From: Escherichia coli
Lineage (GTDB): Bacteria > Pseudomonadota > Gammaproteobacteria > Enterobacterales > Enterobacteriaceae
Length of the DNA stretch: 64,000 nucleotides
Strand: one strand, 5' to 3'
Assembly (NCBI RefSeq): GCF_003790525.1
Contig: NZ_CP033635.1
Below the pieces are notes generated by a model. The model was given only the letters and a program-made list of their open reading frames with translations. It ran no database searches and was not told where the DNA came from. Of this stretch, positions 43,718 through 46,441 are shown piece by piece (positions within the stretch are counted from its first letter, which is position 1; each line of letters starts with the position of its first letter). A program made the translations under genes and the position numbers.

Positions 43718-44275
43718 ATGGCTTCACGCGGCGTAAACAAAGTTATCCTGATAGGACATCTGGGGCAGGATCCGGATATCCGGTATTTCCCCAATGGCGG
43801 TGGCGCTGTGGCGAATCTGTCACTGGCGACCAGCGACACCTGGCGGGATAAACAGAGCGGTGAAATGAAGGAAGTTACTGAATGGCACCGCGTTGTTCTC
43901 TATGGAAAACTGGCTGAAGTTGCCGGCGAGTACCTGCATAAGGGGTCGCAGGTGTATATAGAAGGCCAGCTTAAAACCCGTAAATGGTTTGACCAGCAGA
44001 ATGGTGTGGACCGTTATTCAACTGAGGTTGTTGTGGGCGTGAATGGTGTCATGCAGATGCTGGGTTCATCGCGTCAGCAGGGCGCTTCCGGTAATGGTGC
44101 TTCAGCACTGGCACAAGGGGGCCAGGGACATCCGCCGAAGACGACCGGACAGACTGGTCGTGCCACCCGGACGACGTCAACGGGTAATGGTGCTCCACCA
44201 ATGGACTTTGACGATGATATCCCCTTTATGGGGCTCGGGTATGGCATGGAACGACGAATTATTCATGCCATGTAA
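43718..44275 (+). CDS. ssb: single-stranded DNA-binding protein
   Basis: 185 aa; OB-fold N-terminus, Gly/Gln-rich linker, acidic tail ending DFDDDIPF. Confidence 0.9.
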
Positions 44276-44285
44276 TATTAACCAC

Positions 44286-44309
44286 GGGGCGTTACGCCCC
44301 ACTTTTTTA
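44286..44309 (+). terminator. rho-independent terminator after ssb
   Basis: GGGGCGTTACGCCCC stem-loop followed by TTTTTTAT. Confidence 0.7.
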
Positions 44310-44321
44310 TCCGGAGGTTCC

Positions 44322-45290
44322 GTGAGTGAAAAAGTTAACAAAATCACTATGATTCATGACGGGGCGTTCAAGAAGACGCTTGAAGATCCCGCCGCAGTAA
44401 GGGACTTTCTTGAACAGGTCTTGACACACGATCAGATATCCCGCTGTAATCTTGATACAATAGAAGTTGAAAAGAATTCGTTCGTGACGGAAAGTTTGCG
44501 TCAGCATGCCTGTGATGTTTTGATCAGCATGAAGACAAACGACGGCAGGGACGGATACATTTATACCTTAATCGAGCACCAGAGTTCGCCGGATAAATTC
44601 ATCCCGCTGCGTATGATGCGATATATCCTGGCTGTAATGGAGCAACATGTTGAAAAGCATAAGTGTGCACCTGTGGTGATCCCCGTGTTGTTTTATCATG
44701 GTGCAATGCGGCCATATCCGTATCCGCTGAACTGGGTGGATTGTCTGGATGACCCGGAGTACGGACGGGAGATTTATGGCGAGTCAAAGTCATTCAGTCT
44801 GGTGGATGTCAGTACGCTTGATGATGATGAAATTGAGCAGTATCGCCGGATGGCGGCGCTGATGTACACCATGAAGTCCGGAACTCAAGGTGATTTGATT
44901 GAGCTGATTGGTAAATCGATCACACTGACGGATAAGTATGGCAGTAGCATTCACCTGAATACGGTGCTTACTTATCTGATGGAACTTTACCAGATGGATG
45001 TTGCTGAACTTTTTGAAGCAATATCCACACACTATCCCAGCCATAAGGGGGTGATTATGACGATAGCGGAACAACTGGAAGAGAAAGGTCGGGTTGAAGG
45101 TCTGGAGAAAGGCCTTGAGAAAGGCCTTGAGAAAGGCCGTGCTGAAGGCCGTGCTGAAGAGCGTCAAAAAGCGCTTGCAGAAACTTATGCATCTGTCCGT
45201 CGCATGAGCGATATGGGGATGTCAACGGAAGTTATTAAGCAGGCACTTCATCTTTCTGATGAACAGATTCAGGAAGCGCTTAATAATTAA
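44322..45290 (+). CDS. Rpn (YhgA-like) family recombination-promoting nuclease
   Basis: GTG start at 44322 with GGAGG SD; N-terminal segment HDGAFKKTLEDPAAVRDFLE...GYIYTLIEHQSS resembles E. coli RpnA-E as recalled; the track ORF from 44043 is an upstream extension overlapping ssb. Confidence 0.7.
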   Translation: MSEKVNKITMIHDGAFKKTLEDPAAVRDFLEQVLTHDQISRCNLDTIEVEKNSFVTESLRQHACDVLISMKTNDGRDGYIYTLIEHQSSPDKFIPLRMMRYILAVMEQHVEKHKCAPVVIPVLFYHGAMRPYPYPLNWVDCLDDPEYGREIYGESKSFSLVDVSTLDDDEIEQYRRMAALMYTMKSGTQGDLIELIGKSITLTDKYGSSIHLNTVLTYLMELYQMDVAELFEAISTHYPSHKGVIMTIAEQLEEKGRVEGLEKGLEKGLEKGRAEGRAEERQKALAETYASVRRMSDMGMSTEVIKQALHLSDEQIQEALNN

Positions 45291-45768
45291 CCTCGCATCG
45301 TAATGATGTGGCAGAGCGCGACTGATGCGTCAGAACGTGTGATGCCCTGTGAACACAGCGCCTGCCATTGTGCAGGCGTTTTTTTATCAATCAGTCTGGT
45401 AAATTGTGATGGAACTTTACCAGATGGATTTTGCTGAACTTTCTGAAGCAATATTCACACACTATCCCAGCCACAAGGGGGTGATTATGACGATAGCGGA
45501 ACAACTGGAAGAGAAAGGCCTTGAGAAAGGCCGTGCAGAAGAGCGTCAAAAAGCGCTTGCAGAAACCTATGCATCTGTCCGTCGCATGAGTGATATGGGG
45601 ATGTCAACAGAAGTTATTAAGCAAGCTCTTCAGCTTTCTGATGAACAGATTCAGGAAGCGCTTAATAATTAACCTCACATCGTAATGATGTGGCAGAGCG
45701 CGACTGATGCGTCAGAATGCGTGATGCCCTGTGAACACAGCGCCTGCCATTGTGCAGGCGTTTTTTTT
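44979..45768 (+). repeat. near-tandem direct duplication (~0.36-0.41 kb per copy) of the rpn 3' end plus terminator
   Basis: Copy 1 44979-45385, copy 2 45409-45768; both end in hairpin GCCTGCCATTGTGCAGGC plus T-run. Confidence 0.85.
45409..45672 (+). CDS. stand-alone duplicate of the Rpn C-terminal domain (87 aa, RpnS-like)
   Basis: Near-identical to the last ~100 codons of the upstream rpn gene, with a short internal deletion of GLEKG repeats; own ATG; own terminator copy. Confidence 0.6.
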   Translation: MELYQMDFAELSEAIFTHYPSHKGVIMTIAEQLEEKGLEKGRAEERQKALAETYASVRRMSDMGMSTEVIKQALQLSDEQIQEALNN

Positions 45769-45862
45769 GTCAACCGGAAATCAGTTGTTCATTGAGCCTC
45801 CCCTCACTTCTTCTGCAAATTGACCTCTGACTTTATCACTTCACTGCAGAGGTAATTCCCTG

Positions 45863-46441
45863 ATGAAAATATCCCTTCTTTTTTCCGCGCTGTCTGTCTG
45901 TGTGTTGCTGGCGGGGTGCCAGAGTCCGCAAAAACTGCAGCAGAGGGCGGCTGCCGTCCCGGTACCGTCGGTGACAGTCAGCAACAATGTCCGTCCGGCA
46001 AATCCGGATGTGTACGCCGGTGCGGCGACACCGGAGGTGGTGCGTTATGACCGCTATCTGCTGGTTAACACGGCACCGGATACGGTACAGCGTGACCCGC
46101 TTTCCCAGGTGATTGACATCCGCATTCCGGCATCACTGAAGCCGACGGTGGCGGATGCGATGCGTTATGCCCTGAAACAGTCCGGCTACACACTCTGCGC
46201 CACGGGGCCTGCCAACGGTGTGCTCTACCGTCAGCCGCTACCGGCCGTGCAGTACCAGACCGGGCCGGTCAGACTGCGGAGCGCGCTGCAGATGATGGCG
46301 GGGCCGGCATGGCAGCTTGAGGTGGATGATGTGCAGCGCGTGGTCTGTCACAGTCTGCGTGAGGGTTATCAGTTACCGGCACGCCAGCTGGCGCCGGTAC
46401 CGGCGGTGGTGAAGGTATCCGGTGCGGAGCAGAAAAAATGA
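45863..46441 (+). CDS. pilL: PilL-like lipoprotein (first gene of ICE conjugation module)
   Basis: 192 aa; lipoprotein signal LLAGC; position as in PAPI-1-type ICEs. Confidence 0.65.
   Translation: MKISLLFSALSVCVLLAGCQSPQKLQQRAAAVPVPSVTVSNNVRPANPDVYAGAATPEVVRYDRYLLVNTAPDTVQRDPLSQVIDIRIPASLKPTVADAMRYALKQSGYTLCATGPANGVLYRQPLPAVQYQTGPVRLRSALQMMAGPAWQLEVDDVQRVVCHSLREGYQLPARQLAPVPAVVKVSGAEQKK

Follow-up and report, generated by a model that had tools for sequence, protein, structure and literature searches.

We analysed a stretch of 64,000 nucleotides of Escherichia coli DNA (assembly GCF_003790525.1, contig NZ_CP033635.1), called the window hereafter, at a locus where a gene of the Rpn family of recombination-promoting nucleases is followed by a stand-alone copy of its own 3′ end. 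The features of the locus all lie on the forward strand. The upstream gene, rpnL, occupies positions 44322 to 45290 (969 nt) and encodes a full-length Rpn nuclease of the PD-(D/E)XK type with 322 aa; it starts at a GTG preceded by GGAGG, and the same coding sequence is called by the NCBI Prokaryotic Genome Annotation Pipeline (PGAP). It is a member of the Rpn family, as a preliminary description of this stretch had proposed: the protein passes NCBIfam TIGR01784 ('Rpn family recombination-promoting nuclease/putative transposase') with 124.4 bits against a cut-off of 52.1, and residues 12-204 match Pfam PF04754 (Transposase_31) with an E value of 1.1e-60. An alignment with K-12 RpnA and RpnE and with alleles of related integrative and conjugative elements (ICEs) places D13, D65, E85, Q87, R97 and D168 in invariant columns, where they correspond to D11, D63, E82, Q84, R94 and D165 of RpnA. 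These RpnA residues belong to the active site and the PDDE motif, and their mutation alters activity (Kingston et al. 2017, PMC5350276). The overall identity to K-12 RpnA and RpnE is only about 37-39%. By homology RpnL would be a toxic DNA endonuclease. A scan with PADLOC-DB v2, whose library holds no Rpn model, gave a single spurious match to a 'putative invertase'. A terminator-like hairpin with a T-run that follows ssb (44286-44309) ends about 12-22 nt before the Shine-Dalgarno sequence and start of rpnL and therefore leaves no room for a promoter of its own; no sigma-70-like site was found between this hairpin and 44322. Transcription of the toxin would therefore need read-through from the ssb operon or a promoter inside ssb.

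The last 77 codons of rpnL are predicted to be translated separately as well. In K-12, each of the five rpn genes contains within it a promoter and a translation start for a small C-terminal protein, RpnS, and RpnS binds full-length RpnL and stops its toxicity, SOS induction and DNA cleavage, neutralising it also in trans from a second plasmid (Zhong et al. PNAS 2023, PMC10400941). The same study found that RpnP2, a plasmid-borne Rpn, protects against T-even phages, so that the nested C-terminal antitoxin and phage-defence role named in the preliminary description do exist in the literature. In the window the predicted rpnS (45057-45290, 77 aa, in frame with rpnL) starts at M246, where an internal Shine-Dalgarno sequence and start codon, AAGGGGG-N5-ATG, lie at 45045-45059. 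This methionine and the MTIAE motif that it opens are invariant across RpnA, RpnE and two other ICE alleles; the column corresponds to RpnA M244, to the 'MTIAERL' of K-12 RpnE and YpaA, and to residue 1 of PDB entry 7TH0 (RpnAS, 49 aa). Mutation of RpnA M244 and of its Shine-Dalgarno sequence abolishes RpnAS (Zhong et al. 2023, PMC10400941), and it is by alignment with this validated start that the start of RpnS is predicted here. A profile that included RpnAS itself matched 7TH0 by construction and was used only to confirm the start methionine of the crystallised chain; pentatricopeptide-repeat matches returned by the same kind of profile search of the PDB were discarded as repeat artefacts. 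The C-terminal helix common to RpnL and RpnS is built of four-residue repeats whose number varies between strains, and these begin 8-20 residues past the initiating methionine of RpnS (PMC10400941). Here the hypervariable tract (45078-45161) begins at RpnS residue 8, inside the published range, and consists of seven 12-nt units encoding EEKG RVEG LEKG LEKG LEKG RAEG RAEE. By homology to the published RpnS modules, the nested protein is the probable cognate inhibitor of RpnL, and the pair would act as a defence system of the toxin-antitoxin type. A promoter consensus scan upstream of both the nested start and that of the stand-alone copy gave no site with 9 or more of 12 matches, the candidates reaching 7 of 12.

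The 3′ end of rpn and its terminator were said to be duplicated almost in tandem, and this is what alignment of the two halves gives: the source segment at 44977-45385, which comprises the last 314 nt of rpn (81 nt of them before the internal start), the 96-nt 3′ untranslated region (3′UTR) and the terminator, recurs at 45407-45767. Outside the repeat tract the copy is about 96% identical to the source, and it is 48 nt shorter, the missing nucleotides being four of the 12-nt units (period 12 in Tandem Repeats Finder). Of the 13 substitutions in about 330 nt outside the tract, 4 fall within the 81 nt that precede the internal start, 6 affect the tail of 43 codons and the remaining 3 lie in the 3′UTR. 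At the protein level these give V to F, F to S and S to F before the methionine of MTIAEQ and H to Q in the tail. The downstream reading frame is thus a copy of the Rpn C-terminal module, though not one equal to it apart from the loss of repeats, as first described; nor does the copy begin exactly at the ATG of MELYQ, the homology starting 2 nt earlier. A junction spacer of 21 nt, ATCAATCAGTCTGGTAAATTG (45386-45406), holds a remnant of rpn, CTGGTAAAT, that is still kept in related ICEs with longer duplications. The same hairpin and T-run closes both halves: the intrinsic terminator of rpnL and rpnS at 45357-45385 has a stem of 9 bp, 6 of them GC, and then a T7 run, and its duplicate at 45739-45768 (T8) lies upstream of pilL2, which starts at 45863. 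The identical locus of 1469 nt is present in 12 complete E. coli chromosomes, a locus of at least 99.2% identity in 28 chromosomes from independent laboratories, and the exact 87-aa protein encoded by the longest frame of the copy is on record in 306 contigs. As a separate observation, three hairpins are predicted in the 96-nt 3′UTR (45291-45385 and 45673-45768; z about -2.5 against shuffled sequences), and the region is conserved even beside a divergent rpn allele (locus L012, below). A scan of 44200-45900 against Rfam gave sub-threshold matches only, those in the 3′UTR being Hrs13 (21.6 bits) and RyhB (20.9 bits).

The product of the copy, which we call rpnSs after its published counterparts, is probably shorter than annotated. 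The 87-aa open reading frame (ORF) that opens with MELYQMD does exist (45409-45672, the longest from an ATG and the one annotated by PGAP), and only its start is probably wrong. No Shine-Dalgarno sequence precedes the ATG at 45409. In contrast, AAGGGGG lies five bases upstream of both the ATG at 45057 in rpnL and the ATG at 45487 in the copy (45475-45489), the latter being aligned with RpnA M244 and opening a frame of 61 aa, MTIAEQL onward (45487-45672). Comparison of L with Ss gives 5 synonymous changes and 1 non-synonymous change in the tail of 43 codons that follows the repeats, as opposed to 1 synonymous and 4 non-synonymous changes in the 27 codons before MTIAEQ. The copy of a related ICE (L009) has a frameshift and two stops before MTIAEQ, with both the Shine-Dalgarno sequence and the MTIAEQ frame intact. 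On the strength of the MTIAE alignment, the Shine-Dalgarno sequence, the substitution pattern of the tail and the L009 stops, we reject translation from the MELYQMD ATG and consider the product to be probably the 61 aa from 45487; from MTIAEQ onward the copy looks constrained as a protein. Its three repeat units, EEKG LEKG RAEE, lie at 45508-45543. Outside the repeat indel Ss is 98% identical to the nested S, against 28-35% to the modules of RpnA, RpnE and YpaA, so that this separate same-strand ORF 3′ of rpn is closest to the S module of the gene that precedes it. An AlphaFold2 model of Ss (mean predicted local distance difference test score 80) has helices at 3-36, 41-48 and 52-60, and this predicted arrangement of one long and two short helices resembles the three-helix bundle described for RpnAS (7TH0), although Foldseek gave no significant match between the two (below). 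A phmmer search of the PDB with the 61-aa Ss did not match RpnAS. Databases carry this ORF at 61, 82, 87 or 120-125 aa and as 'transposase', 'hypothetical protein' or 'RpnC/YadD family protein'; in place of an 82-125 aa 'transposase' or 'hypothetical protein', the annotation should probably give a product of 61 aa.

To place the locus among its relatives we used 27 loci in the ssb-rpn-pilL2 frame, drawn from complete genomes and, for variant Ss proteins, from the contigs that encode them; the sample was gathered by distinct haplotype and not by frequency. The copy is present in 24 of the 27, so that duplicates of this kind do occur at other rpn loci, as they also do in K-12 (rpnE-ypaA) and in the published rpnC-rpnCSs. 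The rpn genes of the Ss-bearing lineages are only about 81-89% identical and carry two types of C-terminal tail, A and B, yet in all of these lineages rpn is followed by a terminator and then by a partial copy. The boundaries of the duplication differ, the copy starting at gene nucleotide 577 in tail-B lineages and at 656 in the lineage of the window, and the CTGGTAAAT in the spacer of the latter is a leftover of the stretch kept in the tail-B copies. The duplication is therefore old and shared across ICE lineages, as judged from these sequences. L and Ss keep stable and separate tails (QALHLS in L, QALQLS in Ss) with a synonymous divergence of about 0.18; therefore, the two are not being homogenised. 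The MTIAEQ frame is intact and its Shine-Dalgarno sequence kept in all 24 Ss-bearing loci examined. The number of repeats, on the other hand, is not fixed. An L of 7 units is found with an Ss of 2, 3 (in two compositions), 4 or 5 units; an L of 6 with an Ss of 3; an L of 4 with an Ss of 4 (in one case with the identical tract, in another of other composition), 5 or 9; and an L of 5 or 2 units with tail B with an Ss of 3. Near-identical ICEs have 4, 6 or 7 units in L and from 2 to 9 in Ss. Only 1 of the 13 distinct pairs is fully matched, while 10 of the 13 differ in unit number and another pairs different tail types. In K-12, YpaA has one unit more than RpnE. The repeat number of Ss is not tied to that of the neighbouring L. 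The pair with different tails (L003:1501-2862, NZ_CP075852.1 and 7 similar genomes) joins a type-B-tail RpnL (RSRLVLMMRQKGKSLEEIKDF...) to a type-A-tail Ss (RKKALEATYASVRRMSDMG...) with 3 units each, and recombination between ICE lineages must therefore have taken place inside the locus.

Three ICE alleles (L002, L008 and L012) have a single rpn gene and no copy. L002 (5 units) and L008 (9 units) have L-type bases until about 13-44 nt before the internal start, and from there their 3′ part matches the Ss copies of L005/L015 and of L014, respectively, with 1-2 differences in 420 nt past the internal start. The match covers the whole hypervariable tract, which is identical, and the tail, terminator and flank. 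By their sequence L002 and L008 are deletion-fusions, between homologous blocks, of the rpn N-terminus onto the Ss module; loss of rpnSs by fusion is mentioned in one sentence by Zhong et al. (2023, PMC10400941). L012 is of a different kind. At the site that corresponds to window positions 44322-45860 (L012:1586-2740, NZ_CP182371.1) it has an rpn allele of 45% identity with GIQQ/GVQL repeats, and it keeps the same 3′UTR, terminator and flank despite the divergent gene. The gap between ssb and pilL2 is thus a hot spot at which rpn alleles are replaced.

The arrangement as such is not new. Stand-alone downstream rpnSs genes, ypaA after rpnE and rpnCSs after rpnC, have been reported as independent duplications that are lost by fusion, and YpaA is the one that was tagged and shown to be translated in K-12 (PMC10400941). 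We found no later literature on rpnSs. The locus of the window resembles rpnE-ypaA in having a same-strand copy of the RpnS module directly 3′ of rpn, closest to its own upstream gene, with a start at the conserved MTIAE methionine behind its own Shine-Dalgarno sequence and a unit number that differs from that of the upstream gene (YpaA has one extra KLEG). The two differ in extent, since the K-12 copy begins 14 nt before its ATG, right after the rpnE stop and with no terminator between, whereas the copy of the window also includes 81 nt of now dead coding sequence before the start, together with the 96-nt 3′UTR and a terminator. Here a terminator also stands between rpn and the copy, and the difference in unit number is four. 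They also differ in setting (an ICE here, the core chromosome in K-12), and RpnE is annotated as inactive whereas RpnL of the window keeps all catalytic residues. The rpnC-rpnCSs pair of some E. coli strains likewise has a downstream duplicate of the S module that arose independently, and it was with the paralogue RpnC that the number of repeats was shown to determine the specificity between L and S. PGAP names the small ORF of the window 'RpnC/YadD family protein' in some genomes, but the window protein is not an RpnC orthologue. RpnP2 (ECOR13) and the IncI-type 'ygdB' rpn are, like the present gene, carried on conjugative elements; they are on other replicons and belong to a distant subfamily, and no downstream Ss was seen under those matches. 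The nearest plasmid relatives of the S module are on conjugative E. coli and Salmonella plasmids (44% identity, 1148 records). A word-indexed protein search with Ss gave 47 candidates, among short proteins only, which shows the diversity of Ss but does not count its full-length relatives. When one genome per species was scanned with an exact degenerate DNA pattern for the region of the internal start there were 0 matches, the pattern being too narrow and the ICE being present in about 1% of E. coli genomes. By analogy, the TAEL repeats of EcoR124I/II HsdS (cited in PMC10400941) are also four-residue helical repeats whose number sets specificity, and the silent hsdS cassettes of phase-variable type I restriction-modification systems are also partial downstream gene copies that donate an alternative specificity module. 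Unlike in the hsdS systems, there are no recombinase and no inverted repeats here, and the exchange is an irreversible deletion-fusion instead of reversible switching.

Taken together, we find it probable that the locus is an ICE-borne Rpn toxin-antitoxin gene of the phage-defence type with an rpnSs in the arrangement of Zhong et al. (2023), and that the copy serves as a spare specificity module. On this reading, rpnL would encode the endonuclease together with its nested RpnS, the downstream element would have arisen long ago by partial duplication of the rpnS module together with the 3′UTR and terminator, and the copy would be drifting independently while still coding for protein. As the alleles compared above show, deletion between the homologous blocks recurrently, if only occasionally, fuses the copy onto the N-terminal nuclease domain of rpn, which yields an allele with a new repeat number and a new tail in one step. 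Several points weigh against it, and the expression of the copy is its weak point. An intrinsic terminator stands between rpnL and the copy; the promoter-like sites before the copy are weak, with 7 of 12 matches (one of these, TTGTGA-17-GATTTT at 45404-45432, spans the duplication junction); and the candidate internal promoter region of the longer duplications is deleted in the lineage of the window. The contrast between synonymous and non-synonymous changes amounts to 11 substitutions in all. Foldseek returned nothing significant for the Ss model, with 7TH0 at rank 12 (E 2.4, TM 0.47/0.60) in a list dominated by helix-turn-helix-like matches, as in the HHpred remark of the published study (PMC10400941), and Pfam DUF4351 (PF14261) gave no match to the 87-aa ORF at E values up to 10. 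The DUF4351 label is applied to stand-alone RpnS in some species only and is not defining for rpnSs (PMC10400941). Finally, locus L004 has identical repeat tracts in L and Ss, so that cognate neutralisation may occur in some ICEs.

This last point bears on whether the copy supplies additional cognate antitoxin, providing RpnS in trans so as to buffer toxicity or set an activation threshold, which would in effect be the split toxin-antitoxin pair suggested in the preliminary description. The trans neutralisation of RpnL from a second plasmid, the translation of YpaA in K-12, the identical tracts of L004 and the conserved Shine-Dalgarno sequence and ORF would all suit such a role. However, the pair of the window is mismatched, with 7 units in RpnL against 3 in Ss and H to Q in the tail, and most of the haplotype pairs compared above are likewise mismatched. 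RpnCS with one additional repeat fails to block RpnCL, and vice versa (PMC10400941; the rule is restated in a commentary). Since a mismatch of one unit abolished neutralisation of RpnC, an Ss of 3 units is not the likely antidote for a neighbour of 7, and RpnL would have no need of the copy because the nested RpnS always matches by construction. The rpn gene also keeps its own RpnS start and Shine-Dalgarno sequence, so that it still contains the cognate antitoxin and the arrangement is not a split one; the terminator separates the two genes besides. We therefore regard an extra cognate antitoxin as unlikely. By the published rule on specificity the stand-alone copy is probably not simply a spare antidote. 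The narrower statement that Ss does not neutralise the neighbouring RpnL, which extends the repeat-number rule to this pair, is one on which we are evenly divided; the rule was tested for RpnC with a difference of one unit and may not transfer to this subfamily or to four units, and this too counts against the specificity-module reading.

A non-functional relic would account for several of the same observations, whether it is a partial duplicate now in decay or what is left of the 3′ end of a second, tandem rpn gene, persisting only because it is recent or hitch-hikes. RefSeq flags ypaA of K-12 as a pseudogene, the copy of the window has no convincing promoter and a terminator upstream, the ICE alleles L002, L008 and L012 have no copy at all, and a rare disrupted variant (P0029) is known; since slippage by whole repeat units never breaks the frame, an open frame says little in favour of function. 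Yet the MTIAEQ frame and its Shine-Dalgarno sequence persist in every Ss-bearing locus across diverged ICE lineages, the tail has one amino-acid change at a synonymous divergence of about 0.18, and it is the non-translated upstream remnant that gathers replacements, a deletion and, in L009, stops. With YpaA translated in K-12, decay seems to us quite improbable. Mis-assembly or collapse of a repeat, the condition under which the duplication was to be dismissed, has nothing in its favour beyond the generic risk of repeats and we reject it as next to impossible, because the copies are set apart by 13 differences and a 48-nt indel and independent projects have recovered the same structure in at least 28 complete genomes and in hundreds of contigs. 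The copy may possibly act in trans on other Rpn variants. One form of this would be that mismatched RpnSs proteins are kept for use against other Rpn alleles, for example as an ICE decoy that would neutralise an RpnL of matching repeat number and tail encoded by the host or by a competing or resident ICE. It is in keeping with this that the RpnL of L002 and of L008, the single-gene variants, has an exact counterpart among the Ss alleles, at 5 and 9 units respectively, but we hold the decoy to be doubtful. If it were true, the variation of Ss from 2 to 9 units on an unchanged RpnL backbone of 7 units would reflect an arms race between mobile elements, and the hypervariability of Rpn repeats would come in part from conflict of element against element and not from phage alone. 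A tblastn search with Ss of 50,697 phage records gave no match, so that nothing in these records points to phages encoding an RpnS mimic of this subfamily.

As compared with the published account, the idea of a separately encoded antitoxin module was already in print in 2023 as rpnSs, and the locus of the window is another, ICE-borne example of it. The decoupled repeat numbers and the explicit fusion alleles add a little beyond the main text of that paper, though they are foreshadowed there. The natural series of L/Ss pairs, 7/3, 7/5, 4/4 and 4/9, along with the fused alleles of 5 and 9 units, offers material on how repeat number sets the specificity between RpnL and RpnS and on the role of the orphan copy.

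The element that carries the locus is chromosomal and is an ICE. In annotated E. coli genomes rpn sits between ssb and pilL2, the ORF at 45863 of the window matches TIGR03748 (PilL2), and PGAP labels genes of the host element as PFGI-1 class, SPI-7-type or STY45xx family. A megablast of the locus against PLSDB plasmids gave no match at the DNA level. ICEs of this PFGI-1/SPI-7 class are common in avian and extra-intestinal E. coli, and we take the present one to be presumably ICEEc2-like. Its left part begins at about 26.9 kb in the window with genes for ParA, an SPI-7-type DnaB helicase, ParB, an STY4528 replication protein and topoisomerase III. Since ARAGORN detected no tRNA gene anywhere in the window, the attachment-site tRNA lies outside it. 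The same ICE at locus L001 bears a ParE-family toxin-like gene and a run of ead/Ea22-like genes and pseudogenes, as well as a 'restriction endonuclease' gene within the transfer region (L001:1204-1452 and 16779-17369); relative to 44322, the equivalent positions of the window are some 10.8 kb upstream and some 4.8 kb downstream. In one genome (GCA_025472115.1, L026:1-1792) an insertion sequence with an rve-domain transposase truncates the 5′ part of rpnL and leaves the nested S and the copy intact. Outside the ICE, positions 1-25000 of the window hold a kps-type capsule polysaccharide cluster that includes a CDP-glycerol glycerophosphotransferase and an acyltransferase. This cluster is 100% identical to that of canine E. 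coli strains (CUVET17-1418 and others), which were not among the genomes with the ICE rpn locus.

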